From Coriobacteriales bacterium (GTDB lineage Bacteria; Actinomycetota; Coriobacteriia; Coriobacteriales; UBA8131), in assembly GCA_031279835.1 (NCBI GenBank), contig JAITHV010000075.1:948-64947 (forward strand): a stretch of DNA of 64,000 nt, read 5' to 3'. This document shows positions 17,025 to 64,000 of this stretch, in pieces (the first letter of the stretch is position 1; every line of letters starts with the position of its first letter). Below the pieces are notes generated by a model. That model searched no databases and was not told the origin of the DNA. It worked only from the letters and a program-made list of their open reading frames with translations. Both the position numbers and the translations under genes were made by a program.

Positions 17025-17132
17025 CAGTATAGAGGATGCGGGGCCATCATAGACAACGATGCCGACGCCACAAGCCCGTGAGTCAGAAGAGCCAGACGGC
17101 GTCCCTTGACGCGAATGCGGCTGAACCGCCCT

Positions 17133-33013: not shown

Positions 33014-33090
33014 CCGCCTGACGCCTGCCGGGTCTGACTGCCTGACCAGGCACAATTGCTCAAACCCTGACCACAAGGAGCCAGACCCCC

Positions 33091-44366: not shown

Positions 44367-44386
44367 ACTGGTGACGTGCATCGTGT

Positions 44387-44460
44387 TGGGGTATCGTCCA
44401 ACGGCAGGACTCTGGTTTTTGGTGCCAGCTATCTAGGTTCGAATCCTGGTACCCCAGCCA
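44387..44460 (+). tRNA. tRNA-Gln (anticodon UUG), CCA encoded
   Basis: Manual cloverleaf: acceptor TGGGGTA/TACCCCA, D arm GTCC-AACGGCA-GGAC, anticodon arm CTGGT-TTTTGGT-GCCAG (U33, UUG at 34-36), T arm CTAGG-TTCGAAT-CCTGG, then GCCA. The ends resemble E. coli tRNA-Gln. Confidence 0.93.
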
Positions 44461-44597
44461 TTTGCATACGGGCATGGCCCAAGACTTTGCGTCAGCCCAA
44501 CGGGTGGGGAGCAATGCGGTGCGTCGAGACAACGCGCCTGCCGTCACGATTGCTGAGGCCGCAGGCTAAGCGTACCTTGTTGGGGAGAATAACCAGC

Positions 44598-48461
<3,864 letters not shown>

Positions 48462-48511: not shown

Positions 48512-51500
48512 CTACTCCACCGACTTCAACGAGGTCACCGGGTCGATGCGCCTCAGGCGGGGCAGCATGGCGACGAAGAGCAGCGCGCTGCACAGCACGG
48601 TGAACAGCGCGGCAAGCATGAAGCTCTGTGGACGGATCACACGAGTGAACATAAGCTCACCCATGTCTAGAGTTCCCATCACGAACTCATGGAGGAAGAC
48701 GCCCCCGACAAGTCCGAGCGCGAGCCCTATCAGCATCAGGATGGCGACCTCACGGTAGATGTACCCTGCGACTTCTCGCTGGTAGTACCCGATGACCTTG
48801 AGTGTCGCAAGCTCGCGCATGCGCTCGGTAATATTGAGGTTGACAAGGTTGTACAGCACCACGAAGGTCAGCACGCAGCAGACGGCCACCATGAACCAAA
48901 CCACATACAGCATGTTCTCAGTCACCTCGTCCACCAGCGTCTCGAGCATCGAGACGGGCTGCGAGAGCGCTATCATCTTGGTCTTCAAGAGCTCGGCCGT
49001 GAGGGCGTCAAGCTCGCTGTCAGTCAGGTCCGCCTTGAGCAGCACCGTCGCATACGGAGGGTCTTCTCCGTAGAGGGCGTAAAAATCCTCGGGCGTTATG
49101 AAGACGAAGTTGTACAGGTAGTTCTCCATCACCCCTGAGACCACGAGGTCCTTGGCTGGCTGCCCCGTGCGCTCGCAGTGCACGACGTCGCCAACGCCGA
49201 CGCCTAACACCCGCGACAGGCGCTCCGAGATGACCGCTCGGGGAAGAGAGTCGATGTCAGCGTCGGCCGACGCACCTTGTGCGCCGTCGGCCTCCATGAC
49301 GAGCTTTGGGGGGGGCGGGGGCGGAAACTCCAAAGGCGCGTGCCCGTTGCGCTCGCGGAAAGTGAGGAAGCCCTTGATAGCCTCAGAGTCCTCGACGACG
49401 TAGAGGTAGGTGATAAACCCCGCGCTCGACCGCCCGTTGGCCGAGGCCTCAAGCCCCGACGCGAAGGCGTACGCGCTCTCGTAGTCGCTAAGCCGCCTGT
49501 TGAGTTCGGTGTCGGCCGAGCTTGACGACGGCTCGCGCAGTGTGAACGCCGCCTCGTAGTGTGCGATCTCGCCGAACTGGACTTGGGCGACCGACCCGAT
49601 GGAGTCCAGCACGCCAAACACCGTCACGAGCAACGCCACCGAGCCCGTCACCCCGGTGATGGTCATCACAAGGCGCTTCTTGTAGCGGATCAGGTTGCGC
49701 AAAGTCACCCGGCCTTTAAAGCCGATGCGCCGCCACACTATGCCCACGCGCTCCAAGAACACCCGGCTGCCTGCACGAGGCGAGCCGGGTCGCATAAGCA
49801 CCGACGCAGAGCTGTAGAGGCTCGAGCGACAGGCGAAGTAGGTGACGACCGCGATCACCACGGCGCCGCCGAGCAGCCCAATTATGCAGGGTATCACCGC
49901 AGGGACAAGCTCGAACCCGTTGACCGGGTAGTTGCTCACGTACATGCTCCAAATGAGGCGCGGGATGACGAGCACTCCAAGCGCCACGCCTATCACGCCG
50001 CCTGGCAGCCCCATCGCCCAGGGGAAGAACTGGTACATGGACCCAATGGCGTCCTCAGTGAACCCGAGCGCCTTCAACGTGCCGATCTGGCTGCGCTGCT
50101 CCTCGACCATGCGCGCCATGGTCGTCAGGCACACAAGCGCCGCGATCACAAAGAAGAAGTACGGGATGACGAGCGAGAGCATGGTGATGCGCTCGGCGTT
50201 TGACTTGAAGTCCGAGAAGCCCGGCAACTCGCTGCGCGCCTGCAGCAGCCAGGTGGGCGGCCCAATCTCAGAAACCACCTTCCGGGCGGAGTCCAGGTCT
50301 GCCTGGAGCGCCTCGATAGCCGTGTTCGCCTCCTCAGACTGGTTCTGATAGCTTGACTCTCCTTGCTCAAGGGCGCTCTTGCTGCGGTCGAGCTCGGATC
50401 GAGAGCTGCTGAGCTTTCTCTCGTTTTCGTCTATCTCTTCCGCCGCCTTGCGGTACTTCTCCATGCCTGACGCGTACTCGGCGTCTTTTTGCTCCAATTG
50501 CCCACGCGACGCGAGCAGCTCGCGCTCGCTGGCAACAATCTGCTGTTGGAGCCCGCCGATCTGAGGGACCAGCGCTTCGAGCTGTGCCTGTATCTGTGCC
50601 AAGACCGCCGGGTTGGTCTCCCCGGTCATAGCGGCTATGAGGGCGTCACGCTGCGACTCAAGCTGCCCAAGCGCCTGCTTGGCGCCCGCAAGCTGCTTGT
50701 TGCCGGCGTCATAGGTCGCCCATCCGTCGTCCAGGGCTTTTTTTGCCGCCTTGAGCTCGCGCTCGCTCTCGTCAAGCTCTCGTTTTGCCTGCTCCAAGTC
50801 ACTGACGCCTTTTTGGTACGCCTCCTCGCCTGAGTGGATCTCGTCTTGGGCCGCGCTCAGCTTTTCACGGGCGTCTGCCAGCTCCTTGTCTGCCTCTGAC
50901 CGGGCTGAGTCGATCTCGCCGGCAGCCGAGTCGACCTGCTCGTTGACTGCCTGTCGCATCTCGTTTTGGCGTACTTTGGCACGCTGCTGGCAGAATGCCT
51001 CCAGAGACGCGTACTTCCTGTCGATGACGCCGGTGTACTCGTCTGAGAACGAGGGTACGCCTGCGGTGTCGGCAAGCCGCAACCCGATCACCGTGTAGTA
51101 ATCGCTCGTGAACGTCGAGGCGGGCACGTAGAGAAAGCCGGAGACCCTTCCCGATCCGATCGTCGCAGAGCCCCGCGTGTTCGATATGTACAAAGGCGTC
51201 CGCGCCTTGCCCACGACGGTGAGCATCGTCTGAGACACCAAGTCAAGGCTGGTGGGGTCGTTCTCGCCGTTGAACGTCACGACGTCGCCGACCACCAACG
51301 CCGAGTCTGCGTCCGCAACGCACTCGCCCTGCGCGAGCGGCATCCTTCCTGCCGTCAGCTTCAGCCGCGAGATCCCCGTCTGCGGGTCATGGGCCTCGCC
51401 GTTGCAGACCTCGTCAGGCAGGCTGAGCAGGGCATAGACGAGCACTTCTTCGTTATGCCGCGCCGAGATGTTGACGGCATAGCCTGGCTCGACCTCGAGC

Positions 51501-51745
51501 ACGCCTGGCTGGGCGGCAAGCGCCTCGACGTCGGCCGCGGTTATCCCCATGTCGCAAAACAGGCGGTAGTCAGACAGGTTGCGGTCCTCGAGGTAGCCGC
51601 TCATCGTCTGAAGCATGCTCGGCGCCGCTGACTGAAAGCCTGCCAAGACCGCCGCGCCAAGCGCGACCAGCACCATGAGCGAGACGAAGCGCCCGGGGGT
51701 GCGCGCCAGCTGCCGACGCGTCATCTTGCGCAGGGAGCGGCTCAT
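48512..51745 (-). CDS. MacB/FtsX-type ABC permease (1077 aa, two FtsX modules) with a very long coiled-coil ectodomain
   Basis: The start MSRSLRKMTRRQLARTPGRF at ATG 51745 overlaps the ATPase stop (ATGA). Two FtsX-type TM bundles. Approximately aa 250-495 is heptad-rich. The track ORF extends falsely to 52339 across the ATPase gene. Confidence 0.85.
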   Translation of the reverse strand: MSRSLRKMTRRQLARTPGRFVSLMVLVALGAAVLAGFQSAAPSMLQTMSGYLEDRNLSDYRLFCDMGITAADVEALAAQPGVLEVEPGYAVNISARHNEEVLVYALLSLPDEVCNGEAHDPQTGISRLKLTAGRMPLAQGECVADADSALVVGDVVTFNGENDPTSLDLVSQTMLTVVGKARTPLYISNTRGSATIGSGRVSGFLYVPASTFTSDYYTVIGLRLADTAGVPSFSDEYTGVIDRKYASLEAFCQQRAKVRQNEMRQAVNEQVDSAAGEIDSARSEADKELADAREKLSAAQDEIHSGEEAYQKGVSDLEQAKRELDESERELKAAKKALDDGWATYDAGNKQLAGAKQALGQLESQRDALIAAMTGETNPAVLAQIQAQLEALVPQIGGLQQQIVASERELLASRGQLEQKDAEYASGMEKYRKAAEEIDENERKLSSSRSELDRSKSALEQGESSYQNQSEEANTAIEALQADLDSARKVVSEIGPPTWLLQARSELPGFSDFKSNAERITMLSLVIPYFFFVIAALVCLTTMARMVEEQRSQIGTLKALGFTEDAIGSMYQFFPWAMGLPGGVIGVALGVLVIPRLIWSMYVSNYPVNGFELVPAVIPCIIGLLGGAVVIAVVTYFACRSSLYSSASVLMRPGSPRAGSRVFLERVGIVWRRIGFKGRVTLRNLIRYKKRLVMTITGVTGSVALLVTVFGVLDSIGSVAQVQFGEIAHYEAAFTLREPSSSSADTELNRRLSDYESAYAFASGLEASANGRSSAGFITYLYVVEDSEAIKGFLTFRERNGHAPLEFPPPPPPKLVMEADGAQGASADADIDSLPRAVISERLSRVLGVGVGDVVHCERTGQPAKDLVVSGVMENYLYNFVFITPEDFYALYGEDPPYATVLLKADLTDSELDALTAELLKTKMIALSQPVSMLETLVDEVTENMLYVVWFMVAVCCVLTFVVLYNLVNLNITERMRELATLKVIGYYQREVAGYIYREVAILMLIGLALGLVGGVFLHEFVMGTLDMGELMFTRVIRPQSFMLAALFTVLCSALLFVAMLPRLRRIDPVTSLKSVE

Positions 51746-52446
51746 GTGGCCAGGTCCTCGGCCTTGCGAGGCGACAGGTTCTTCACGAGACTGTCTATCT
51801 GGCCGTTTCGGACGGTGATGACTTTTTGCGCCAGCTCCGTGATGTCGTTGTTGTGGGTAATGAGCACGACGGTCATGCCCGAGTCCTCGCTCGTCTTTTG
51901 GAGCAGCGAGAGTATCTGGATGCCCGTGGCCTCGTCGAGCGCGCCAGTTGGCTCGTCGCACAGCAGCAGCTTGGGGTTCTTCACGAGGGCGCGGGCGATG
52001 GCGACACGCTGCTGCTCGCCGCCAGAAAGCTGCGAGGGAAAGCTGTTCATGCGATGCGAGAGCTCGACGGCGTCGAGCATCGCGCGCGGCGATGCCGGTC
52101 GCTTGCACACCTCGGCGGCAAGCTCGACGTTCTCGAGCGCGGTCAAGTTGGGGATAAGGTTGTAGAACTGGAACACGAAGCCGACGCTGTTGCGGCGATA
52201 CGATGCCAGCCGCCGCTCGTTGTAGCGGGTGATTTCTTCCCCGTCCACGGTGACAGTGCCCGAAGAGCGCCGGTCGATGCCGCCCAAAATGTTCAGGATG
52301 GTAGTCTTGCCGGCCCCCGATGGACCAACGATGGCACAAAACTCGCCCTGCTCAACGATCAGGCTCACTTCTTTGAGCGCAGTGGCCTTCGTCTCGCCCT
52401 GCCGATACACTTTTGACACATCACGAAACTCAATATAAGGCGCCAT
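51742..52446 (-). CDS. ABC transporter ATP-binding protein (MacB/LolD-like)
   Basis: GPSGAGKTT, LSGGEQQRVAIARAL, LLLCDEPTGALD. Confidence 0.92.
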   Translation of the reverse strand: MAPYIEFRDVSKVYRQGETKATALKEVSLIVEQGEFCAIVGPSGAGKTTILNILGGIDRRSSGTVTVDGEEITRYNERRLASYRRNSVGFVFQFYNLIPNLTALENVELAAEVCKRPASPRAMLDAVELSHRMNSFPSQLSGGEQQRVAIARALVKNPKLLLCDEPTGALDEATGIQILSLLQKTSEDSGMTVVLITHNNDITELAQKVITVRNGQIDSLVKNLSPRKAEDLAT

Positions 52447-52826: not shown

Positions 52827-52949
52827 CGCAGTTGTCGTCAGGGGCCTCCAACGGTATCATTGTCGCTGAAGAGTTACACGGGCGCTTCACGTCATCTGTC
52901 GGCCTCAGGGTCAGGCGTGCCCGAAAAGCCAGCGAGAAAAGGGGTTGCC

Positions 52950-53246
52950 ATGGTCGCGATACCTCCAACAGGCGTCACCGCAGACGAGGTGCTGCGCGAG
53001 CTCATTGAGGTGCTTGCCTCAGTGCTCGGCGAAGAAGTTGTAGCCGTCATGGACGTGAGCGCCGAGAGCAGCTTTGTGCGCGACCTCGAGATGGACAGCA
53101 TAGCCATCGTCGCCTTCGCCTCAGAAGTCAACGAGCGCTTCGGCGAGCGTGTGGACTTCATTGCCTGGCTGCGCGGCCAGTCGCTGCGCTCGCTTCAAAA
53201 GCTCACGGTCAAAGACGTGGCCGACTTTATCGTTCAGGGTCGCTGA
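52950..53246 (+). CDS. Discrete acyl carrier protein
   Basis: 98 aa. ADEVLRELIEVLASVLG...SFVRDLEMDSIAIVAFASEV has the DSI phosphopantetheine-attachment motif. ATG 52950 has a GAGAAAAGGGG RBS. The upstream 121 open codons of the track ORF do not look protein-like. Confidence 0.8.
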   Translation: MVAIPPTGVTADEVLRELIEVLASVLGEEVVAVMDVSAESSFVRDLEMDSIAIVAFASEVNERFGERVDFIAWLRGQSLRSLQKLTVKDVADFIVQGR

Positions 53247-54098
53247 GTGGCGCTTGACGAGCGTTTTGTCGCGGTTGGCACAAAAAAAGTCCATGTGGTC
53301 GAGATGCGGCCAGACGCGCCGCTCCGGCCGCCAACAGAGGCGCTGGCGCCGTCCGCACACGACATGCCGAGCGCCGGCGCACAAGCACTCGTCATGCTCC
53401 ACGGGCTGTTCTCCAACCTGAGCCTCTACTTTTTCAGAATAGCACCTTCATTAGCACATACTTATCGGGTTGTTATATATGACCTCCGCAGCCACGGCCT
53501 GAGCGAGCGGGCATCGGGGGCCCACACGCTCGAGGTCTTGTCCGAAGACCTGCTCGCCCTCATGGACGCTCTCGAAATCGAGAAGGCCGCGCTCGCCGGC
53601 CACAGCTACGGCGGGACGGTCGCGCTGCTCACTGCCCTGCAGCACCCCGAGAAGGTCAGCCAGCTGGCGCTCATCGACGCGCCGTGCCTCACTGAGCCGC
53701 GGTTCGCCGCCGCGCGCCTCAGACAGCGGCTCTCGCACGGGCGGGTCACCGACCGCTCTGTGGCGCGCTATGCAAGCGCCGCCGGCCTGTCTGCCCAGGC
53801 GCGCCGCTCACCGAAGTCTCAGGAACAAATTCGGTACTTGCTCACCGAAGGCAGACTCGAGGCCTCGTTTTCAGCCGGGCGCACGACGATGCAGTCGCTT
53901 GACCTGGGGCGCCTGGCCATGCCGACGCTGCTGTTGTACGGCACGCGCTCTCCCTTTCGCGCAACAGGGCGGCGCCTCAAGGCCGCGATTCCCTGTTCCG
54001 TCCTAGAACTGGTCGAGGGAGGCCACGACTTCCCGGTAAAAAGCGCTCCACAGCTGACCGAGCACCTCGCCTGCTTTTTAGCAGGCACGGGTATTTGA
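53247..54098 (+). CDS. Alpha/beta-fold hydrolase (possible thioesterase/acyl hydrolase)
   Basis: VMLHGLFSN oxyanion region, the GHSYGG nucleophile elbow and a C-terminal GGHDFP. The GTG start directly abuts the ACP TGA. Confidence 0.8.
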   Translation: MALDERFVAVGTKKVHVVEMRPDAPLRPPTEALAPSAHDMPSAGAQALVMLHGLFSNLSLYFFRIAPSLAHTYRVVIYDLRSHGLSERASGAHTLEVLSEDLLALMDALEIEKAALAGHSYGGTVALLTALQHPEKVSQLALIDAPCLTEPRFAAARLRQRLSHGRVTDRSVARYASAAGLSAQARRSPKSQEQIRYLLTEGRLEASFSAGRTTMQSLDLGRLAMPTLLLYGTRSPFRATGRRLKAAIPCSVLELVEGGHDFPVKSAPQLTEHLACFLAGTGI

Positions 54099-54289
54099 CT
54101 CTCAAAAACTATAAAAAACTCTCAAGAACCATTAAAAACGCCCGAACAGGCCAGAGTCCGCCCTAAGACAGGCTCGCTGGATTTTGCCCTGCTTGTATTA
54201 CCAGTTCCTTAAGTTTTCGTGACTATGGCCTGCCCTCTTGAAAACAGCGCCGTGACGCCATCTTTTGCCTTTGTTGCGTGTCCTTCTTA

Positions 54290-54317
54290 TTGACTTATGG
54301 AACATTATTAGTATCAT
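54290..54317 (+). promoter_or_regulatory. Candidate promoter of the megasynthase gene (TTGACT-16 nt-TATCAT)
   Basis: Read in the AT-rich 330-bp spacer, about 105 nt upstream of the chosen ATG. Confidence 0.45.
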
Positions 54318-54428
54318 TTTCTTGAGAGTGTTCTGCGGCTCAAGGGGCTGTGATCCTAAGTATAGGGTAGAGGACTCAGGGAACAAGGGGCCATGGTCTT
54401 GCTATGGCTTTGCAGAGAAGGGCACCAT

Positions 54429-57400
54429 ATGAACATGAGACTGTGTTGCATATCGCCGTTTGAACGGCCCGATTGCAACTTGGTGAAGTCCGCGTTGAAA
54501 GCAGGTGCCTTTGGCGTCTTGCACCTCGGGGCTGATCCTGTTGTCGCAACTGCCGCACTTGAGGAGATGGCGGCTCGAACCGCTCTCAACTTCGGCGTCT
54601 GCTTGTCCGACGAGTCGCTTTCTGGGCTTGCGCTGCCCGAGCAAGTCGCTGTCGTCATGCTCCCCTGGGGGATGACGCCGCCTCAGCAGGCCGCCAACCC
54701 CGCGTACGAGGTCATATGGCAGGTCAGCACTGTGCCAGAGGCCTGCGAGGCATTGGAGACAAACCCCTCATCAATCATACTCAAAGGCTGCGAGGGAGCC
54801 GGTGCTTGCAGCGCAGACTCTGCCTTCCTGTTGTTCCAGGCGCTGCGCGAGCGTTGTCTTGAGGCAGGCGTCAGCATCTACATCCAAGGCGGCATCGGCA
54901 TACACACAGCAGCCGCCTACCTCGCGCTCGGCGCCAGCGGCGTCGTCATGGACTCACAGCTCGCGCTCTTCGCCGAGTGCGGCACGTCGCCTGAGCTCAA
55001 GGCCGCCCTTGGACGCCTGAGCGGCAACGAGATCCGCGAGCTGGACGGCTTCCGGTATTTCGTGCGCCCCGGTGGCGCAGAGCCCCCGCAGGACGCAGGG
55101 GTCACCGGACTCAAAGAGCATATGGCGCAGGCGACTCAGGACTGCATGCCGCTCGGGCAAGACGTCATACTCGGCGCCGAGCTCGTGCGCCGCTACGGAA
55201 GCCTCAAGCGGCTCGTGCGTGCTATCGGCCGAGCACCCCTCGGCTACCTACGCCTCGCCCAGTCGCTTGGCTGCCTTGCCCCAGGAGACGAGCTTGCCTC
55301 CGACTTGGGGACCGAGCTTCCCCTCGCACAAGGGCCAATGGCGCGCATCAGCGACGTACCGCAGTTCTTGCGCAGCGTCGCCGACGAGGGCGCGCTCCCC
55401 TACCTGGCCATGAGCATGACGACCGGCAGCCGCGCCGCAGAGTCGCTGGCCGCAGTCAAAGACGCGCTCGACGGCAAGGCATGGGGCGTCGGCATACTCG
55501 GCTTTATCTATCCTAAAGTCCTTGAGGAGCAGACCCGCCTCATCATCGAGGCCCACCCCCCTGTGGTGCTCATTGCCGGAGGGCGCCCTTCGCAGGCGCG
55601 CGCCTTCGAGCAGGCCGGCATCCAGGTGTTCTTGCATGTTCCGACAGCAAGCCTTCTCGACATGTTCCTGAAAGAAGGCGCCCGAAGCTTCGTCTTCGAG
55701 GGCCGCGAGAGCGGCGGGCATGTTGGCCCGCTCCCGTCAGCGGTGCTTTGGGACAAGCAAGTCAGCCGCCTCCTTGAGATCGACGACATCTCCTCGCTCA
55801 AGCTGTTCTTCGCTGGCGGCGTCCACGACGCGCTCTCTGCGGCATTCGTCAGGGTGCTCGCCTCCCAGCTGGTGGCCCGCGGCGCCAAGGTAGGACTGCA
55901 GGTTGGCACTGCCTACCTTTACACTGACGAGGCCGTAAGCACGGGCGCCATCACCGAGGGCTACCGCAAACAGCTCGTCGAGGGCACGGCCACCTTGCTG
56001 CTCAAGTCAGGTGCCGGTCAAGAGAGCCGTTGCATCCCCTCGGCCTTCACGGACTATTTTGAGCAAGAGCGCCAGCGCATGCTCGACGAGGGGCTCGAGA
56101 TGACCGACGTGCTCATGCGTCTTGAAGAGCTCAACTTGGGCAGGCTGCGCATCGCGTCAAAAGGCGTCGAGCGCCAAGGCGATGCCCTCGTGCAGCTCGA
56201 CGCGCGCGAACAGGGCGACAAAGGCCTGTTCATGACCGGCGCCGTGACGCCCCTCATTAACGAGACCGGCACGATACCAGCCCTGCACGACGCCCTTTTT
56301 GCGTCGAGCGCACAGCTCCTGGGCGCTCTGGGCGCCTCGGGCGACGCAGGCGACGCGGCGGCAACGACGGGCGGCAGAGGCCTAGCCCACATCGGCGACG
56401 GCGCCTCGGGCTCGAGCCCCCACACGTTGCCGGCCTGCGACGTGGCCATTGTCGGCATGGAGTGCATCTTTCCCGACGCCGCAAACAAAGACGAGTACTG
56501 GCGCAATATCCTGCTCGGACGCAACAGCATCCGCGAGGTCTCCCCTGACCGCTGGCAGGCTGAGCTGTTTTACGACCCTGAGGCAAGCGACACCGACCAC
56601 GTGGTCTCCAAATGGGGCGGGTTCATCGACGCCTCGGACTTTGACGCCCTCGAGTTCGGCATCACGCCACAGTCGCTTGCCGCCATCGAGCCGGTCCAGC
56701 TACTGAGCCTGCTGGTGGCCAAGCGCGCGCTTGCAGACGCAGGCTACACCGACCTCTCAGCGATCGACATGGAGGACACTTCGGTGATCTTCGGCGGCCA
56801 AGGCGCCGGCGAGCTGACCGTCTCTTACACTACGCGCTCCGAGATGCGCCGCTTTTTTGGCGCGCTGCCCCCCGAGGCCGCAGCAGTACTGCCGAGGCTG
56901 ACGGAGGACTCGTTTCCGGGCGTTTTGTCCAACCTCATATCGGGGCGCATCACAAACCGCCTCAACATGGGCGGCCGCAACTACACGGTAGACGCGGCCT
57001 GCGCCTCGTCGCTTGCCGCGCTCGACATCGCCTACACCGAGCTGGCCTGCGGAAAGGCCGACATGGTTGTGCTCGGTGGCGCTGACGCCCATAACGGCAT
57101 CGGGGACTTCCTCATGTTCGGGAGCACCTATGCCCTTTCTCGCACCGGCAGATGCTCGACCTTTGACGCTGAGGCCGACGGCATAGCATTGGGAGAAGGC
57201 GTCGGCGTGGTCATACTCAAGCGCCTTGACGACGCGCGGCGCGACGGCAACAAGATCTACGCGGTCATCAAGGGCATTGGAGGCAGCAGCGACGGCAAAG
57301 TCCTCGGGCTGACTGCCCCAGACAAGCAAGGCCAGCAACGCGCGATGGAGCGCGCGTACGCCGCCGCAGGCGTCGACCCCGCACAGATCGGCCTCATCGA

Positions 57401-60400
57401 GGCCCACGGCACCGGTACCGTCGTCGGCGACCGCGCCGAGCTCGAGGCGCTCAACGAGCTCTTCCTCGACTTTGGAACGCAACCGGGCCGCATTCGCGTC
57501 GGCTCGGTCAAGACGCAGATCGGGCACACAAAGTGTGCGGCCGGCGTCGCAGGGCTCATCAAGACAGCCCTCAGCGTCCAGCACGGGCTTCTCCCTCGGA
57601 CCCTGAACCTCAAGCACCCCAACGGGGCGTGGCTGCCCAACGGCCCCTTCAGCTTCCGCACCGAGTCGGTGGGCTACTGGAACGACCCGGTGCGCCTTGC
57701 GGGTGTGAGCGGCTTTGGCTTCGGCGGCACGAACTTCCATGTCATAGTCGGGAACCACGAGGAGGCACGGCCGGCCGTGCCGCTCAAGTCCTGGCCTGCC
57801 GAACTGCTCGTCTTCCGTGGCGCGACGCCCGAGGAGGCCTGCGAGCCTATGCGCAAGATCGTCGAGCTGTTCGCGGTCAATGACAGCATATGCCTCAAAG
57901 ACATAGCGTTCACGCTCGCCTCACAGGCAGGCTCGGCGCCCATCCAGTTCAGCATCGTCGCCACAAGCCGCGACGGCTTGCTTGCCTCCATCGAGGCAGC
58001 GCTTGCAGGCGCCCCCGACGAGCACACCTTTGCCCGTCGCCCAATCGAGGGCAAGGTGGCCTTCTTGTTCCCCGGCCAGGGCAGCCAACGAACGCACATG
58101 GCCGCCGGGCTGTTCACGCTGTTCCCCCGCATGCGCCGCCTGCTTGACGCTCATCCGGAGTACTTATGCCTGCTGTTCCCTGACGCTGTGTTCACCGATG
58201 AGGCACGGCGCGCCCAACAACTGGCCGTCACCGACACACGCAATGCCCAGCCATTGCTCGGCATTGTCGACCTCGCGCTCGCGACGCTGCTGCGCGACCT
58301 CGGCGTTCAGGCCGACATGGCGGCTGGGCACAGTTACGGCGAGCTCGTCGCACTGTGCTTCGCCGGCGCCTTCGAGGAGTCCTGCCTCGTAAGCCTGAGC
58401 GCCCAGCGCGCCGAGGCGGTGCTTGGCGCCGTGGGCGACGACCCCGGCCGCATGGCGGCGGTCCGCACCGACACAGACACCCTCGAGGCGCTGCTCGATG
58501 GCGCTGCAGACGTGTGGGCGGTCAACTACAATGCCCCCAAGCAGACCGTTGTCGCCGGCACGGGCCCAGGGCTTGACGCCTTTCTCGCCAAGCTCGATGC
58601 GGAGAAGGTCAGCTATGCCGAGCTCGACGTGGCCTGCGCCTTCCACAGCCCGCTGCTCGCCGGGGCACAAGACAGCTTCGCCGCCGTCCTCAAGGACGTC
58701 GCCTTCAAGAAGCCGTCGGTGCCCGTCTGGTCAAACACCACCGCCGAGGCCTACCCTACAACCGCCCCGGCGATACGCGCGCGCCTCGCCGAGCAGCTGG
58801 TGAGCCCGGTGCGCTTCGCGCGCGAGATCGAGAGCATGTACGACGACGGCGCCCGCGTGTTCATCGAGGCCGGCCCTGGCGCGACTTTGACCACGCTGGC
58901 AGGAAGGACGATAAAAGACAAAGGGATCGCCTGCATTCAGACTGAGCGAGCAGACAAAGAGTGCCTTGAGTTCCTGCTTACAGGCCTGGCACACTACCTA
59001 GCGACCGGGAGGGAGATCAGCATGGACAAGTTGTACGAAGGCAGAGACGCACAGGAAGTCAACATCGACAAACCCGAGGCCCACAAGAAGAACGCCACGG
59101 TCTGGAAAGTGGACGGAGGGCGCGCGGTGCCCGAGTTCGGCGAGCTGCCCGCGCATGCCGGCACCCCCGTGACCCGGCCGCTCCTCTCGCTGTCTGCCCT
59201 CGCGTCTTCTGCAGGCAACCACAACGTCGAAGACGTCGTGATGGCGTTTCTCGACAACGTGAACAACATCATGCAAGACCAGCGCGACGTCATGCTCGGC
59301 TACCTCGGCTCGCCTGAGACAGCTCCTCGCTCAGCACCTGTGCAGCGCACGTTCGTCTTCGCCGATGACGGCAGCCCGCTCCAGGGCACCAGTGACGCCT
59401 CCGGCGGTCCGGTCCCGGTCGAGGCCACGGTCATCGAGAGCGCAGCGCCCGGCGCGCCAGCCGCGGGCAGCGGCCTGCCCGACATCCGCGACCTCTCTAC
59501 CGAGCAGATCACCGAGATCGTCCTCAGCATCATCAGCGACAAGACCGGGTACCCGACCGACATGCTCGGGCTCGACGTCAACCTCGAAGCCGACCTGAGC
59601 ATTGACTCCATAAAGAAGGTCGAGATCGTCGGCGGCCTGCGCGACCGCGTGAACCTCCCCGAAGAGGGCGAGGACATGGACGACTTCTTTGAGAAGATGA
59701 TAGCGATAAAGACCATCCGCTCGTTGGTGGAGTGGATCCAGGAGATGGGCGCGGCCATTGGCGACGAGGAGGCCGGGCAGACAGCGCTTGAGGGAGTCGT
59801 CGAGGCGTCCTCGGCCGAAGGCGAGGGAAGCACGCAGGCTTCGCCCGCCGTTACGGCAGTCACCGCGGCCGCAACGGCCGCCGCCGCCGGCGGCGGAGCC
59901 GCCGCCGACTCCGCCGTCATCGACGACGTGGTCCGCATGATCCTCACGAAGACCTCAGTCCCCCTCGGCGAGACCGACGAGTCGGTGCTCGAGGGAAAGC
60001 GAATTGCCGTCACCGACGACGGCAAGGGACTTGCGGCCGGCGTGGTCGCCGCGCTGGGCGACAAAGGCGCCGAGGCGGTCCTCGTCACCCTGGCCGACCT
60101 CGGCCCTGACGGGCTTGCGCCCTTTGACGGGCTCGTGCTCGTAAGCTCAGCCGCAGGGACCCACTACACAGCAGCAGACCTGTTCGGCCTCCTGAAGACC
60201 GCCGACATGACGCGTCTTCGTTGGGCGGCAGTCTTCGACGACCTTCCTGCCGAGCTCCTGCGCGCGCGCAAGTCGTTCAAGCTTGAGCGGCTAGAGGGCT
60301 TCTCCGGCCTTATCAAGTCGCTCTGCCACGAGTATCCGGGCGTTCGCCTGAGCATGGTCGAGTTCGACGTGGCCATGGACGCGGCGACGCTTCCGGCCAT

Positions 60401-61385
60401 AGTCGTCAGCGAGCTGTGCGCTACGTCGCCCTTCCCCGAAGTCTTCTACGAGGGCGCAAAGCGCTTTGCGCTCCTGCCGCATGTGGCAGACCTCCCTGAC
60501 GGCGAGCCGCACGACCTGGGGCTAGACAGCTCCTCGCTCGTGCTCGTTCTCGGCGGGGCCCAAGGCATCACGCCACACCTCGTGGGCGGGCTCGCAAAGA
60601 CCTACCCCTGCCGCTACCTGCTCGTGGGAAGCACCGCCCCCGCCACGCCTGAAGAAGAGCAGGCCTACGCGCAGCTCGCTGGGCGCGACGAGATACGTCG
60701 CCACCTCATCGACGTCGAGGGCATGAAGCAGCCACGCGAGATCGAGCAAAAGACAGCGCGCATTGCCAAGACCAAGCAGATTGCTGCCACGCTCTTGGCC
60801 TTTGAGGCACTCGGCGCCACTGCGAGCTATCACAGCGTTGACGTCACCGAAACTGCAGCCCTGCGCAGCTTCGTCCGCGCCGTCGTAGCTGAGCACGGCA
60901 CGATCGACGGCGTGGTCCACGCCGCAGGCATCTTGGAGGACAAGCGCTTCTGTGACATGGCGCAGGACTCCTTCGAGCGCGTCTACCGCACCAAGACCGC
61001 GCCTCTGGCCGTCATCGCCGAGGAGCTGCTCGGCGGCCTCAAGCTGCTCGTCATGTTCAGCAGCATGTCCTCGGCCCTCGGCAACGCCGGACAATGCAAC
61101 TATGCCGCCGGTAACAGCGTCTTTGACATAACCGCCCGCATCCTCAGCAAGAAGCAGCCTGAGCTGCGCGTCATGGCCTTCAATTGGGGCCCCTGGAAGG
61201 GCACCGGCATGGTGAACGACACCCTCGAGGCCGAGTTCCGCAAGCGCGGCATCTCCCTTCTCACGCTCGAAAAGGGCATCCCCTTCTTCTGTGACGAGCT
61301 TGAGAAGGGCACACAGCCTTCAGTCCTCGCCATTGCCGGACAAAAAGAGGAGGTCGGGCGCTTCATTGAGTCCAGCCTGCAGTGA
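54429..61385 (+). CDS. Pfa-type (PUFA-synthase-like) type I megasynthase. Domain order: NMO-like, NMO/FabK-type ER, KS, AT, ACP, KR.
   Basis: ER: LAQGPMARISD...FEGRESGGHVG. KS: TVDAACASS (Cys codon 57000-57002), EAHGTGT, KTQIGHTKCAAG, GFGGTNFHV. AT: FLFPGQGSQ, GHSYGE (Ser codon about 58332), CAFHSP. ACP: LEADLSIDSIKK. KR: VLGGAQGITPHL, NAGQCNYAAGN. Start set at ATG 54429 (GAAGGG RBS); the track start is 54393. Confidence 0.92.
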   Translation: MNMRLCCISPFERPDCNLVKSALKAGAFGVLHLGADPVVATAALEEMAARTALNFGVCLSDESLSGLALPEQVAVVMLPWGMTPPQQAANPAYEVIWQVSTVPEACEALETNPSSIILKGCEGAGACSADSAFLLFQALRERCLEAGVSIYIQGGIGIHTAAAYLALGASGVVMDSQLALFAECGTSPELKAALGRLSGNEIRELDGFRYFVRPGGAEPPQDAGVTGLKEHMAQATQDCMPLGQDVILGAELVRRYGSLKRLVRAIGRAPLGYLRLAQSLGCLAPGDELASDLGTELPLAQGPMARISDVPQFLRSVADEGALPYLAMSMTTGSRAAESLAAVKDALDGKAWGVGILGFIYPKVLEEQTRLIIEAHPPVVLIAGGRPSQARAFEQAGIQVFLHVPTASLLDMFLKEGARSFVFEGRESGGHVGPLPSAVLWDKQVSRLLEIDDISSLKLFFAGGVHDALSAAFVRVLASQLVARGAKVGLQVGTAYLYTDEAVSTGAITEGYRKQLVEGTATLLLKSGAGQESRCIPSAFTDYFEQERQRMLDEGLEMTDVLMRLEELNLGRLRIASKGVERQGDALVQLDAREQGDKGLFMTGAVTPLINETGTIPALHDALFASSAQLLGALGASGDAGDAAATTGGRGLAHIGDGASGSSPHTLPACDVAIVGMECIFPDAANKDEYWRNILLGRNSIREVSPDRWQAELFYDPEASDTDHVVSKWGGFIDASDFDALEFGITPQSLAAIEPVQLLSLLVAKRALADAGYTDLSAIDMEDTSVIFGGQGAGELTVSYTTRSEMRRFFGALPPEAAAVLPRLTEDSFPGVLSNLISGRITNRLNMGGRNYTVDAACASSLAALDIAYTELACGKADMVVLGGADAHNGIGDFLMFGSTYALSRTGRCSTFDAEADGIALGEGVGVVILKRLDDARRDGNKIYAVIKGIGGSSDGKVLGLTAPDKQGQQRAMERAYAAAGVDPAQIGLIEAHGTGTVVGDRAELEALNELFLDFGTQPGRIRVGSVKTQIGHTKCAAGVAGLIKTALSVQHGLLPRTLNLKHPNGAWLPNGPFSFRTESVGYWNDPVRLAGVSGFGFGGTNFHVIVGNHEEARPAVPLKSWPAELLVFRGATPEEACEPMRKIVELFAVNDSICLKDIAFTLASQAGSAPIQFSIVATSRDGLLASIEAALAGAPDEHTFARRPIEGKVAFLFPGQGSQRTHMAAGLFTLFPRMRRLLDAHPEYLCLLFPDAVFTDEARRAQQLAVTDTRNAQPLLGIVDLALATLLRDLGVQADMAAGHSYGELVALCFAGAFEESCLVSLSAQRAEAVLGAVGDDPGRMAAVRTDTDTLEALLDGAADVWAVNYNAPKQTVVAGTGPGLDAFLAKLDAEKVSYAELDVACAFHSPLLAGAQDSFAAVLKDVAFKKPSVPVWSNTTAEAYPTTAPAIRARLAEQLVSPVRFAREIESMYDDGARVFIEAGPGATLTTLAGRTIKDKGIACIQTERADKECLEFLLTGLAHYLATGREISMDKLYEGRDAQEVNIDKPEAHKKNATVWKVDGGRAVPEFGELPAHAGTPVTRPLLSLSALASSAGNHNVEDVVMAFLDNVNNIMQDQRDVMLGYLGSPETAPRSAPVQRTFVFADDGSPLQGTSDASGGPVPVEATVIESAAPGAPAAGSGLPDIRDLSTEQITEIVLSIISDKTGYPTDMLGLDVNLEADLSIDSIKKVEIVGGLRDRVNLPEEGEDMDDFFEKMIAIKTIRSLVEWIQEMGAAIGDEEAGQTALEGVVEASSAEGEGSTQASPAVTAVTAAATAAAAGGGAAADSAVIDDVVRMILTKTSVPLGETDESVLEGKRIAVTDDGKGLAAGVVAALGDKGAEAVLVTLADLGPDGLAPFDGLVLVSSAAGTHYTAADLFGLLKTADMTRLRWAAVFDDLPAELLRARKSFKLERLEGFSGLIKSLCHEYPGVRLSMVEFDVAMDAATLPAIVVSELCATSPFPEVFYEGAKRFALLPHVADLPDGEPHDLGLDSSSLVLVLGGAQGITPHLVGGLAKTYPCRYLLVGSTAPATPEEEQAYAQLAGRDEIRRHLIDVEGMKQPREIEQKTARIAKTKQIAATLLAFEALGATASYHSVDVTETAALRSFVRAVVAEHGTIDGVVHAAGILEDKRFCDMAQDSFERVYRTKTAPLAVIAEELLGGLKLLVMFSSMSSALGNAGQCNYAAGNSVFDITARILSKKQPELRVMAFNWGPWKGTGMVNDTLEAEFRKRGISLLTLEKGIPFFCDELEKGTQPSVLAIAGQKEEVGRFIESSLQ

Positions 61386-61478
61386 CGTGGAGCGCCTAGC
61401 CCCCACAACGCGTCAAAGGCGCAGAGGTTCCGACAGCAATGACGTGCAGGCGTCTGCACAGAGAGTCAGGGTCATGAC

Positions 61479-64000
61479 GTGACAGCAGCAAACAAAGACA
61501 TCGCCATCGTCGGCATCTCCCTGCTTTGCCCCGCAGGAGACTGTGTCGAGGAGTTCTGGCACAGTATAGCAACAGGTGGCGACTTTATCACCGAGATACC
61601 AGACAACATCATCGAGTCCTTTTACTTTGACAAGGACAGCTCAGCCGCCGACCGCTTCTACTGCAACAAGGGCGGCGTGAGCAAGCCATGCTGGGTGGAC
61701 CCTTTGCGCTACGGGCTTCTCCCCGTGACGGTCAAGGGGCTTGACCCTGAGCAGCTTATCTCGCTCAGCCTCGTAGAGCGCGCGCTCATTGACGCGGGGG
61801 TGTATGAGAAGGACCTGCCGCTCAACAAGGGCAGCATGATCATCGGAAGAGGGAGCTTTCCCGGCGTCGTGACATTGCGCTGCAACGAGATAGTGCGTTC
61901 CTCCAACCAGCTTGTGCTGCTGCTCAAAGAGGCGCTGCCCTCGCTGAGCGACGAGGACCTCAACCAGTTCAGGAAGGTGTACCAGTCTCGCCAGGGGATG
62001 TTCCAGTCAGACACCGCCATCGGGACGATGCCCAACCTCATCGCCTCGCTCGTTGCGAACCGCTTCGACATGCAAGGCCCCGCCTACCTGCTCGACGCCG
62101 CCTGCGCGAGCGGCATCGTCGCCATCGACCACTCGATCACGCTTCTGCGCAGCGGACAGTGCGATATAGCGGTCGCCGGCGGCATGCACGCGGGCCACAG
62201 CTCTATGTTCATGAGCGCCTTCAACATGATGGGCGCCATGACACACAAAGGGCAGATCACCCCCTTTGCCAAAAACGCCGACGGGCTGATCGTCGGCGTG
62301 GGCGAGGCGTTCATCGTGCTCAAGACCCTCGAGAAGGCCGAGCGCGACGGCGACCGCATCTATGCCGTCATAAAAGACACGGCCGTGTGCAGCGACGGCG
62401 GCGGCTCCCACGTGACAGTCACTTCTGTCCCCGGCGAAGTGCGCGTCATGGACCTCGCCTGGAAGAAGGCCGGGATGGACCCGGCCAAAATTGGCTATGT
62501 CGAGGCGCATGGGACCGGCACGCCTGTCGGGGACCGCGTGGAGATAACGGCGCTCAAGGAGTTCTTCGGCGACTCCAGCACGCCCCGCGCCTGGGTGGGC
62601 TCCCTGAAGTCGAATGTCGGCCACATGATGGGCGCCGCAGGCATCATGGGAGTCATCAAGGCGGCACTTGCCCTGTACTACCGCACCATTCCGCCGACCC
62701 TGCACTGCGAAGAGCCGCTGCCCGTCATGTTCGAGTCGCGCTTCCTGCCGCCCTCCGAGGCAATCCCCTGGGACGAGGACCAGTATCCCCTTGTCGCCGC
62801 AGTCAACGCGTTTGGCTTTGGCGGCATCAACTCGCACGCCATTCTGACCGCTTACAAGCCGTCTGCAGGCGCGCCGCCTCAGCCGCTCCCCCGCCCCTGG
62901 CTCGGGGAGACGATCATGCTCTCTGCCCCCGACAAAGAGGCACTTGTCGCCAAAGTCAAAGCGGGCGATTTCACCGACACGGGCGGCAGCTGGCGCATCG
63001 CCCTGTTCGACCCCACCGAGAAGCGCCTTGCGCTCGCCCTCTCCATCATTGACAAGGGAGTGCCTTGGCGCGGCCGCTCGGACATCTGGTTCAGCAACGA
63101 GCAGCTGCTGACCGAAGGCGGCAAGACGGTCTTCATGTTCCCGGGCTTCTTCCCTGAGGAGGCGCCCGACACAGACGACCTGACCGGTTGCCTTGGCCTT
63201 CCGATGCGCGACCAGGTCGTCGACGAGCTTGTCGCCCTGATAAAAGACCCCAGCTCGGTCAAACGCGAAGGCATCCGCAACATGGAGACCGTCTGCGCAC
63301 AAGACCTGATGCTGCGCGCCTTTGACAAGCTCGGCATCAAGGCAGACCTGTACATCGGCCACAGCATCGGCGAGTGGATGGCAAACACCTTCGCCGGCAA
63401 CGGGACCTCTGAGGACTTCTCCGAGATCATCAAGCTCGTCGGCGACTCCCAGACCGAGCACACGCATCCCTTTATCGCCGTCAGCGTCGACCTCGACACC
63501 GCGCTCACATGGTGCGCTCAGATACCCGGCCTGTACGTCTCCAATGACAACTGCCCTGGACAGATCCTCATGTGTGGGGAGAAGGCCGCGCATGACACGC
63601 TGCTCGAGCTGCTTGAGCGCGAGAGGGTCTTCTACACGGTCTTGCCTTTTGGCAGCGGCATGCACACGCCGCTTTGGAACGACCGGCTCGACAAGTCCAT
63701 GGCCAGCCTCGACCTCTTCGAGAACGTGCAGGGGTCGGTCCCCGTCTGGTCTGCAACGACGCTAGAGCCTATCCCCACCAACTCCGAGGAGTACCGCACG
63801 CTCGTCCGACGACAGCTCGTCGAGCCGGTCTACTTTCGCGAGCTGACCGAGAAGCTCTACCACGAGCAAGGCGCGCGTCTCTTTGTGCAGATCGGCTCCG
63901 GCAACCTCGTGGGCTTTGTGGAGAACACGCTCAAGGGCTTGCCGTTCGGCGCGGTGTCCACCGTGTCGCCCGGTCGCAGCGCGCTCGCGCAGATGCGACG
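61479..64000 (+). CDS. Second Pfa-type synthase subunit (KS followed by a GHSIGE acyltransferase-like domain), 3' end beyond the window. Absent from the ORF track because there is no stop in the window.
   Basis: Manual translation from GTG 61479 (in-frame TGA at 61440) gives VTAANKDIAIVGISLLCPAG...LLDAACASGIVAIDHS (Cys codon 62103-62105), VEAHGTGTPVGD, LKSNVGHMMGAAG, AFGFGGINSHAIL, then KTVFMFPGF...LYIGHSIGEWMA. The frame is open to position 64000. Confidence 0.88.
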   Translation, partial: MTAANKDIAIVGISLLCPAGDCVEEFWHSIATGGDFITEIPDNIIESFYFDKDSSAADRFYCNKGGVSKPCWVDPLRYGLLPVTVKGLDPEQLISLSLVERALIDAGVYEKDLPLNKGSMIIGRGSFPGVVTLRCNEIVRSSNQLVLLLKEALPSLSDEDLNQFRKVYQSRQGMFQSDTAIGTMPNLIASLVANRFDMQGPAYLLDAACASGIVAIDHSITLLRSGQCDIAVAGGMHAGHSSMFMSAFNMMGAMTHKGQITPFAKNADGLIVGVGEAFIVLKTLEKAERDGDRIYAVIKDTAVCSDGGGSHVTVTSVPGEVRVMDLAWKKAGMDPAKIGYVEAHGTGTPVGDRVEITALKEFFGDSSTPRAWVGSLKSNVGHMMGAAGIMGVIKAALALYYRTIPPTLHCEEPLPVMFESRFLPPSEAIPWDEDQYPLVAAVNAFGFGGINSHAILTAYKPSAGAPPQPLPRPWLGETIMLSAPDKEALVAKVKAGDFTDTGGSWRIALFDPTEKRLALALSIIDKGVPWRGRSDIWFSNEQLLTEGGKTVFMFPGFFPEEAPDTDDLTGCLGLPMRDQVVDELVALIKDPSSVKREGIRNMETVCAQDLMLRAFDKLGIKADLYIGHSIGEWMANTFAGNGTSEDFSEIIKLVGDSQTEHTHPFIAVSVDLDTALTWCAQIPGLYVSNDNCPGQILMCGEKAAHDTLLELLERERVFYTVLPFGSGMHTPLWNDRLDKSMASLDLFENVQGSVPVWSATTLEPIPTNSEEYRTLVRRQLVEPVYFRELTEKLYHEQGARLFVQIGSGNLVGFVENTLKGLPFGAVSTVSPGRSALAQMR

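Follow-up and report, generated by a model that had tools for sequence, protein, structure and literature searches.

A probable type M/N secondary-lipid synthase beside a MacB-type exporter in an uncultured Coriobacteriales genome

Catalogued secondary-lipid synthases and the Coriobacteriales cluster

We analysed a biosynthetic gene cluster at the end of a 64,000-nucleotide (nt) stretch of DNA, hereafter the window, from a metagenome-assembled genome (MAG) of an uncultured Coriobacteriales bacterium. By exact sequence, several window proteins correspond to MDR2492787-96 on a 91,042-bp contig. The cluster runs from position 52950 to the window end and encodes, on the plus strand, a discrete acyl carrier protein (ACP), an alpha/beta-hydrolase, a large multidomain synthase (protein 1) and a second synthase protein (protein 2) that is cut by the window end. 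A comparable layout was tabulated by Shulse and Allen in 2011 for secondary-lipid synthases of types M and N, whose entries in File S1 comprise (i) a protein with enoyl reductase (ER), ketosynthase (KS), malonyl-CoA:ACP transacylase (MAT), two ACP and ketoreductase (KR) domains, ER-KS-MAT-ACP2-KR; (ii) a protein with KS, acyltransferase (AT) and phosphopantetheinyl transferase (PPTase) domains; and (iii) an ACP (PMC3098273). Type M is listed there for Frankia, Renibacterium, Actinosynnema and Streptomyces avermitilis, and type N for Chryseobacterium gleum (EFK33535-33533) and, as a KS-PPTase, Chitinophaga pinensis; in type O the layout is shared and the number of ACPs varies from one to three, and type P, the ars system of Azotobacter, consists of an ER-KS-MAT-ACP-KR protein (ArsA, YP_002800097) and a protein with the PPTase, ArsD (PMC3098273). 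Types M-T were set apart from the polyunsaturated fatty acid (PUFA) types A-L by the KS tree and by PPTase motifs, and among the listed types M-P only type P had a known product in 2011 (PMC3098273). The polyketide synthase (PKS) of S. avermitilis with a C-terminal PPTase, SAV_7361, had no identified product as of 2018 (PMC6042109), and type-M products were still called unidentified in 2026 (PMC13291983). An initial annotation of the window had named no assigned product for such clusters in anaerobic high-GC Gram-positive bacteria, in agreement with these three sources, and we found no near-identical characterised cluster with a known product. The S. avermitilis entries NP_828538-36 are presumably the 'pks1' genes sav_7362/SAV_7361, judging from the accession numbering.

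Among enzymes of this architecture, ArsA alone has been characterised biochemically; it makes long alkyl chains of C23-C25 or C22-C26 (PMC4824345; PMC13291983). In Azotobacter vinelandii, arsABCD encode a type I fatty acid synthase (FAS), ArsA/ArsD, which feeds type III PKSs that produce the alkylresorcinols of the cyst. The alkyl chains made by ArsA are saturated; according to Miyanaga et al. (2008), ArsA reportedly builds the chain from malonyl-CoA and the chain stays on the ArsA ACP.

Set against these systems, the window cluster is very probably a type M/N secondary-lipid synthase in the sense of Shulse and Allen. Like the members of that class, it combines an ER-KS-MAT-ACP(n)-KR protein, a second protein beginning with KS-AT, a discrete ACP and a hydrolase, and the KS and AT of its protein 2 (KS2-AT2) nest beside type N and type M genera in our tree. 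Its differences from the catalogued class are modest. The window has one integrated ACP, compared with two in most listed members; its gene order is permuted, with the ACP and hydrolase genes 5' of protein 1 and not 3' of protein 2; and a MacB/FtsX exporter adjoins the cluster instead of glycosyltransferases of family GT1, which we did not see in the window and which, as genes that follow the hydrolase, are a feature noted in this analysis and outside the 2011 definition of types M and N. The host, an uncultured Coriobacteriales bacterium, also differs. The layout is therefore not new. It was catalogued in 2011 for types M, N and O, and ArsA has the same domain order; the locus is a further member of the class, and the initial annotation, which had called the layout non-canonical, overstated its novelty.

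The comparison with ArsA concerns the single-ACP ER-KS-MAT-ACP-KR order and was made by File S1 architecture. In ars, type III PKS genes (arsB, arsC) accompany the synthase genes, whereas proteins 1 and 2 of the window are separated by just 93 nt and no chalcone-synthase-like (type III PKS) gene is among the neighbours scanned; the ars listing in File S1 has no free ACP and no KS-AT annotated in ArsD; File S1 lists a hydrolase for no type, so its absence from the ars listing is uninformative. With PfaABCDE of Shewanella and Moritella the cluster shares an iterative type I organisation, related KS, MAT, ACP and KR domains, a PfaD-type ER and a PfaB-like AT. Four differences from pfaABCD had been pointed out in the initial annotation, and all were borne out: the PfaA-like protein carries the ER at its N-terminus, one ACP stands in for a tandem array, a free ACP and a hydrolase lie upstream, and no dehydratase (DH), chain-length factor (CLF) or PPTase is seen before the window end. 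In addition, the canonical array comprises four or more ACPs, protein 2 of the window has no KS-CLF didomain, and its orthologues carry a fused PPTase and one PKS-type DH, not two FabA-type DH/isomerases. The heterocyst glycolipid synthase of Nostoc/Anabaena (HglE/HglC/HglD/HglB, type F) is likewise Pfa-like without a FabA-type DH, and glycosyltransferases accompany most type M/N relatives as they do the Hgl system. Unlike the window cluster, Hgl has separate HglE (KS-MAT-ACP2-KR), KS/CLF-AT, ER and ACP-thioesterase proteins together with a glycosyltransferase. Its chain is very long and mostly saturated, C26-C32 (PMC13291983).

Domains of the encoded proteins

Pfam agrees with the initial annotation on the four consecutive plus-strand genes, their coordinates and their domain order, with E-values far past chance. 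The discrete ACP (52950-53246, 98 residues; PF00550, E=7e-8) has the serine motif LEMDSI, its ATG is preceded by the ribosome-binding site (RBS) AAAGGGG, and the same 98-residue protein was also called by JGI. It is 38-43% identical to the small ACP encoded 3' of protein 2 in Listeria, Dysgonomonas, Pedobacter and a related Coriobacteriales MAG locus (L001). The alpha/beta-hydrolase (53247-54098, 283 residues; PF00561, E=2e-26) has a GHSYGG nucleophile (serine) elbow and scores 25.5 bits against the PF00975 thioesterase model, slightly under the cut-off; we presume that it is a thioesterase or release enzyme.

Protein 1 (54429-61385, 'PfaD-PfaA fusion') reads [weak NMO-like]-ER-KS-MAT-ACP-KR by Pfam and NCBIfam. 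Its open reading frame (ORF) is open from 54393, and the ATG at 54429, which has the better RBS, gives a protein of 2318 residues. The ER (55299-56183) is a flavin mononucleotide (FMN)-type enzyme of the FabK/PfaD type (PF03060, E=9e-17; TIGR03151 FabK, E=2e-21) and matches FabK crystal structures with E ~1e-11. The NMO-like segment that the initial annotation listed ahead of the ER (54429-55298) is degenerate and weak (PF03060, E=5.6e-4, under the Pfam cut-off). These N-terminal ~290 residues match the ER segment in BLASTP with E=0.017 over the G-x-E-x-G-G / GG(I/V) region. A degenerate NMO/FabK-like segment ahead of a functional-looking ER suggests a tandem pseudo-dimer of TIM barrels; the ER domains of thraustochytrid PUFA synthases are reported to form a heterodimer (PMC13311796, 2026).

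KS1 (56439-57611; PF00109 and PF02801, E=6e-63 and 1e-38) has a complete triad of Cys (VDAACASS), His (EAHGTGT) and His (IGHTK). AT1 (58062-58928), a malonyl-CoA:ACP transacylase (PF00698, E=5e-34; FabD model, E=6e-54), shows the full malonyl signature when its motifs are read in translation: GQGSQ, GHSYGE, Arg at Ser+25 and AFHS. A single integrated ACP (59517-59735, LSIDS) is the sole PF00550 match in protein 1, and a ketoreductase (60543-61223; PF08659, E=2e-30) follows. Domain by domain, protein 1 is 51-67% identical to its orthologues at three related loci (L001-L003), 36-57% to those of Pedobacter/Chryseobacterium and 32-50% to those of Streptomyces/Frankia.

Protein 2 (61479-64000, 'PfaB/PfaC-like', KS2-AT2 by Pfam) begins with GTG after a gap of 93 nt and runs for 840 codons without a stop. 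KS2 (61494-62711; KS models, E=4e-44 and 1e-36) carries LDAACASG, EAHGTGT and VGHMM, and its Cys-His-His triad is kept in all 19 of the 19 aligned family members. KS2 is therefore not a CLF. Neither does a second KS-like domain (CLF) follow KS2, in the window or in full-length homologues; an AT takes that place, as the initial annotation had noted for the window. KS2 is colinear with the Moritella PfaC KS (residues 7-457 vs 3-450 of 6RIW). AT2 (63111-63908; PF00698, E=3e-9, partial) is a divergent acyltransferase that keeps the Ser-His dyad (GHSIGEW, GMHTP). Column inspection showed that it lacks the GQGSQ glutamine and the Arg at Ser+25, both of which are missing in 19/19 members. PfaB, a long-chain terminal acyltransferase, has lost the malonyl-binding arginine and, at another motif, a conserved glutamine (PMC12895367).

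The initial annotation had ascribed to both KS domains an insertion just upstream of the active-site Cys, of the kind typical of PfaA/PfaC-type enzymes. This is clearly so for KS2, whose HMMER alignments with modular-PKS KS domains are interrupted by ~70 residues (~114-187, ~20-95 ahead of Cys209) that are colinear with the Moritella PfaC KS. It holds less clearly for KS1, which in PDB alignments runs full-length with trans-AT and cis-AT PKS KS domains and has ~6-18 extra residues, shared with the trans-AT PKS KS domains. The motifs quoted as the insertion are in fact the normal pre-Cys loop. Better evidence than the insertion for a Pfa affinity of KS1-AT1 is its top score, which is to the PfaA model TIGR02813 (838 bits, E=1e-251, under the 1010-bit cut-off). 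Together with the KS2-PfaC colinearity, the FabK/PfaD-type ER and the recurrence of the four genes elsewhere, this score upholds the description of the locus as Pfa-like, a secondary-lipid cluster of which the window holds only the first part.

We used homologues of protein 2 as a guide to the part beyond position 64000. The best 120 (highest identity 58%) come from Coriobacteriales and Clostridiales MAGs, Listeria, Dysgonomonas/Azobacteroides, Pedobacter, Chryseobacterium and Mucilaginibacter; among them, full-length proteins have 1440-1470 residues and nearly all have a PPTase (PF01648). A profile of the C-terminal 600 residues of the homologues matches Sfp and AcpS structures in the PDB. 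In the ~300 residues between AT and PPTase, no DH was found by Pfam (E<=1) or by a profile search of the PDB, and full-length protein 2 homologues gave no FabA-like Pfam match. A DH was detected solely through an AlphaFold2 model of the C-terminal half, built from a 57%-identical Coriobacteriales orthologue (P0010), and its Foldseek comparison. The model has a mean pLDDT of 78.7, with the DH-PPTase part mostly >80 and the first 140 residues <50; it matches the PKS-type double-hotdog DHs of CurJ, MlnB and PpsC (TM 0.67-0.73, normalised to target), and an Sfp fold follows the DH (4MRT, TM 0.73). The family alignment holds an invariant DH His164 (HPYLxDHS) and a D321-x3-Q325 (D-x3-Q) motif. On this predicted fold, the architecture of the protein 2 family is KS-AT-DH-PPTase. 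Because nearly all full-length homologues carry both domains in their later half, the DH and PPTase that the initial annotation did not see before 64000 most likely lie just past it, between ~64000 and 65900, in a window protein predicted to have a full length of 1440-1470 residues. Neither Pfam nor the fold of the P0010 C-terminal half gave a FabA-type DH, a CLF or tandem ACPs in the window synthase or its orthologues.

A whole-library HMM search with the DH-PPTase profile returned 793 representative clusters at 50% identity (E<=1e-30). We considered whether the ~500-residue matches among these were stand-alone ArsD-like proteins; at least 8 of 10 checked lay on 2-11 kb contigs or were flagged partial, and they are most probably gene fragments. 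Separately, some genomes of the gut clade described below have two or three protein 2 paralogues around one protein 1 copy (L001, 1-24398; L085, 14397-18821). The L001 cluster (Coriobacteriales MAG, Ga0466708_202304) also has an acetyl-CoA carboxylase carboxyltransferase gene. In P0037, one of the protein 2 paralogues, the PPTase motif is degenerate and reads FGAAKQA instead of FWVAKEA.

Conserved cassette, exporter and predicted product

We scanned one genome per species, which gave at least 80 loci, the best being 51% identical among the matches listed. By tblastn with the window proteins, protein 1, protein 2, ACP and hydrolase occur together in that order in dozens of genomes, including Pedobacter, Chryseobacterium, Dyadobacter, Burkholderiales MAGs, Streptomyces, Amycolatopsis, Frankia and others, so that the four-gene cassette spans Bacteroidota, Actinomycetota and Burkholderiales. 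At most type M/N loci a hydrolase homologue lies directly 3' of the ACP, which makes the hydrolase a fourth conserved gene of the cassette, one absent from the 2011 table; in the window the ACP-hydrolase pair has moved 5' of protein 1.

A neighbour-joining tree of KS2-AT2, rooted on KS1-AT1 and built without bootstrap support, places the window in a clade with Coriobacteriales, Clostridiales, Listeria and a termite-associated Actinomycetes MAG. This clade lies next to Bacteroidales and is sister to Chryseobacterium/Pedobacter (type N), then Frankia/Streptomyces (type M). The correspondence with the 2011 study is by genus and not by exact strain, and that study used the PfaA-like (proximal) KS. 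The mix of phyla in the tree suggests horizontal transfer. One further KS-AT match, 36% identical to protein 2, stands in a MAG labelled Bifidobacterium breve (L083, 10001-12634) without other cassette genes. In the tree it falls outside every other relative; such a gene is unexpected in Bifidobacterium and may be a binning artefact or an unrelated PKS/FAS.

Neighbourhoods were compared through Pfam-labelled loci and a second tblastn round with the Dysgonomonas glycosyltransferases. The hydrolase gene is followed by one or two GT1 genes (UDPGT/EryCIII-like) in Dysgonomonas (L086, 15397-17783) and at nearly every type M/N locus (L005-L051, ~15300-17800) of Bacteroidota, Streptomyces, Amycolatopsis, Frankia and Burkholderiales. 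This linkage suggests a glycolipid product for the bulk of the type M/N class. Homologues of the Dysgonomonas glycosyltransferases were found by tblastn neither in the window nor within 10 kb in L001-L004, L084 and L085, and most of the gut-clade loci examined have a MacB/FtsX exporter in their place.

The window has such an exporter directly 5' of the ACP gene and divergent from it. A MacB/FtsX-type ABC permease of 1077 residues (48512-51745, minus strand; Pfam FtsX in two stretches, E=1e-29) is paired with an ABC ATPase of 234 residues (51742-52446, minus strand) of the LolD/FtsE/DevA/MacB type. The ATPase matches the NCBIfam models LolD (E=2e-64), DevA (E=2e-61; 208 bits for the DevA-family model) and MacB (E=2e-59), all under their equivalog cut-offs, and the permease has weak NCBIfam matches to DevC/LolCE/ADOP. 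The permease ATG at 51745 overlaps the ATPase stop (ATGA), which makes them a translationally coupled pair; the mechanically called permease ORF of 1275 residues over-extends into the ATPase gene. Residues ~250-500 of the 1077 (449-696 in the over-long ORF) also give weak SMC-like, possibly coiled-coil, matches.

Orthologous permeases of 1043-1104 residues adjoin the synthase in L001, L002/L003 and L085, with a weaker match (27% identity) in L004, and the ATPases encoded next to the L001 and L004 synthases share 56-58% identity with the window ATPase. In Listeria sp. PSOL-1 (L084, LR760298.1, 14728-17403), directly 3' of the synthase and ACP genes, a single gene encodes an 891-residue hydrolase-ABC ATPase-MacB_PCD-FtsX protein, to whose hydrolase domain the window hydrolase is 34% identical. 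To our knowledge, no hydrolase-MacB fusion has been described. The association with a MacB-type exporter thus recurs in L001, L002/L003, L004 and L085, in addition to the fusion in L084. Because adjacency at a single locus is weak evidence, the weight of the exporter link rests on this recurrence and on the Listeria fusion, which is the strongest evidence for a functional link between release and export. The four genes grouped by the initial annotation do form a unit, but the unit is probably larger and includes the ABC pair at 48512-52446. DevBCA, which exports the heterocyst glycolipid as an envelope lipid, is a MacB-type ABC pump. The presence of a MacB/DevCA-type exporter beside the synthase resembles type F and DevBCA as an analogy of function, not as evidence of membership.

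Our preferred reading, to which we give reasonable though not strong credence, is an iterative type I FAS/PKS secondary-lipid synthase whose long, largely saturated acyl chain is released and exported. The Sfp-type PPTase expected at the C-terminus of protein 2, beyond 64000, would convert the ACPs to the holo form, and AT1 would load malonyl units onto the single ACP of protein 1. KS1 would prime and elongate, with KS2 probably serving later rounds or the final condensation. In each round the KR of protein 1, the PKS-type DH predicted for protein 2 from its orthologues and the FabK/PfaD-type ER of protein 1 would act, giving a long, largely saturated, possibly partly hydroxylated chain, by analogy with Azotobacter ArsA. 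AT2, without the malonyl-binding Gln and Arg, like PfaB, may then transfer the completed chain either onto the free ACP or onto water, and the alpha/beta-hydrolase would release it; we infer that AT2, the free ACP and the hydrolase make up an off-loading stage. Finally, the adjacent ABC exporter would move the chain from the cytoplasmic membrane to the cell surface.

Several points weigh against this scheme. For types M and N the chemistry is carried over from ArsA and from the logic of the domains, the functions proposed for KS2, AT2 and the free ACP are putative, and an ER domain is no guarantee of full reduction in every round. The window stops at residue 840 of protein 2, which places the C-terminal half and any downstream genes beyond 64000. 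The exporter is divergently transcribed, and MacB-type pumps are common, which lowers the value of adjacency at one locus. Glycosyltransferases accompany most type M/N loci and were unseen here, and the end product may differ between clades.

A genuine PUFA synthase, making fatty acids like eicosapentaenoic or docosahexaenoic acid for membrane lipids, would fit the best match of KS1-AT1 to the PfaA model, the colinearity of KS2 with the PfaC KS, the PfaD/FabK-type ER and the PfaB-like AT2. We nevertheless regard it as extremely unlikely: there is a single ACP and no tandem array, an AT and not a CLF follows KS2, the PfaA score of 838 bits falls short of the 1010-bit cut-off, the only DH of the orthologues is a PKS-type double hotdog with no FabA-type pair for cis double bonds, and the KS tree and PPTase motifs separate types M-T from PUFA types A-L (PMC3098273). 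The conserved, apparently intact ER built into protein 1 in every member speaks against an iterative PKS for a polyene or arylpolyene-type pigment or antibiotic, which we consider very improbable. Such an enzyme would use the free ACP and hydrolase for a second building block and for release, in the manner of the celluxanthene (cex) cluster of Acetivibrio thermocellus, a system of anaerobic clostridia in which an alpha/beta-hydrolase and an ACP acting in trans likewise accompany an unusual iterative PKS and a PPTase (PMC12144888), and the neighbouring exporter would suit a secreted bioactive compound. The cex cluster differs in its KASIII enzymes, its AMP-ligase, its lack of an ER and its product, an arylpolyene tetronate (PMC12144888). 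We rejected cex as a known counterpart of the window cluster: its accessory genes differ and none of them flank the cluster, beside which there is no KASIII or acyl-AMP ligase, and it lacks an ER. ArsA, whose architecture is the closest of those characterised, provides phenolic lipids with their long alkyl chains, and these are saturated.

A further alternative is a role as the main (housekeeping) FAS, replacing FAS II; such a role has been suggested in Renibacterium salmoninarum, a species without fabA and fabZ, for its type M system (PMC3098273). The domain set of KS, MAT, ACP, KR, DH, ER and PPTase would be self-sufficient, and no fab genes lie within the 64-kb window. Against this, the cassette also occurs in Listeria, Pedobacter, Chryseobacterium and Streptomyces, which have their own FAS II; phyla are mixed in the KS2-AT2 tree and the distribution is patchy, as for a horizontally transferred accessory trait; the cassette is linked to exporters or glycosyltransferases and not to phospholipid genes; and one relative has several paralogous copies. 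We consider a housekeeping role decidedly unlikely. Somewhat easier to entertain, yet still unlikely, is a glycolipid synthase like the bulk of types M and N, in which GT1 genes beyond 64000 or elsewhere glycosylate the chain and the ABC pump exports it, in parallel to the heterocyst glycolipids. The GT1 genes 3' of the hydrolase at nearly all other type M/N loci speak for it, and ~27 kb of the source contig in total lies outside the window. The closest relatives speak against it, given their glycosyltransferase-free 10-kb surroundings; in L002/L003, protein 2 is directly followed by rapZ, a CofD-family gene, whiA and gap, and no upstream ORF of at least 150 residues in the window matched a glycosyltransferase family. 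As a separate observation that bears on the question of the host's own FAS II, a DegV-family gene (fatty-acid-binding, FakB-like) at 7321-8199 (minus strand) hints at the use of exogenous fatty acids.

Returning to a released and exported long chain, we can extend that reading tentatively to the whole gut clade, although we think the extension rather doubtful. The clade may have turned a glycolipid-type synthase into a glycosyltransferase-free one, in which a hydrolase at the MacB/FtsX pump cleaves a very-long-chain lipid from its carrier and the lipid is deposited on, or released from, the Gram-positive surface. If true, anaerobic gut bacteria would possess a lipid, of the envelope or secreted, that has yet to be described, and with it a new route of lipid export.

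Type M/N synthases are widespread: they occur in soil Bacteroidota, in Streptomyces and Frankia, in bacteria associated with fish and food, and probably in anaerobes of the insect gut. Catalogued fifteen years ago, they still have no assigned product, and the question of the product at the level of the class is genuine. The present locus extends the class into uncultured Coriobacteriales; it supplies context and no direct route to the product. The leads it offers are a hidden PKS-type DH predicted between AT and PPTase; a hydrolase, plus GT1 in most lineages, that belongs to the cassette, which points to a glycolipid product; and a MacB-type exporter that replaces the glycosyltransferases in most gut-clade loci examined and is fused to the hydrolase in Listeria. 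The product question is more approachable in the cultivable Listeria grandensis, Listeria sp. PSOL-1, Pedobacter, Chryseobacterium and S. avermitilis; a window derived from a MAG is not the best experimental entry point.

Promoter matches and upstream genes

Two sigma-70-like promoter matches, both consensus matches only, lie on the plus strand within or near the cluster. One (52832-52860, TTGTCG-17-TATCAT, 9/12 positions) sits 5' of the ACP gene in the 503-bp divergent intergenic region, and the other (54290-54317, TTGACT-16-TATCAT, 10/12 positions) lies 5' of protein 1.

The window upstream of the cluster is ordinary chromosome, with rpoA, rpsD, ftsZ, sepF, divIVA, glmU, prs and pth. Just 5' of the cluster are MatE, biotin/lipoate ligase-family and Na+/H+ exchanger-like genes, a tRNA-Gln and a hybrid histidine kinase. 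We considered the kinase, exchanger, MatE and ligase-family genes as possible members and rejected them, as they do not recur beside the synthase in related loci; the exception is MatE, which is near the synthase in Dysgonomonas. The tRNA-Gln (44387-44460, plus strand, anticodon TTG; ARAGORN and Rfam, 54 bits) falls within the first 85 nt of a mechanically called ORF of 1361 residues (44376-48461). This ORF encodes the hybrid histidine kinase, in which GAF, HisKA, HATPase and two receiver domains are combined with a hemerythrin domain at the C-terminus, and the true start of the kinase must therefore lie 3' of the tRNA.

Further upstream, an IS-type DDE transposase gene (PF01609; 22512-24176, plus strand) breaks the housekeeping stretch, and radical-SAM and DUF4130 proteins are encoded by an overlapping gene pair (19813-22222, minus strand). 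An indolepyruvate/2-oxoacid:ferredoxin oxidoreductase pair followed by a PaaK-like aryl-acid CoA ligase (30411-34326, plus strand) forms an aromatic amino-acid fermentation module, which lies ~19 kb 5' of the cluster and has no evident connection to it.

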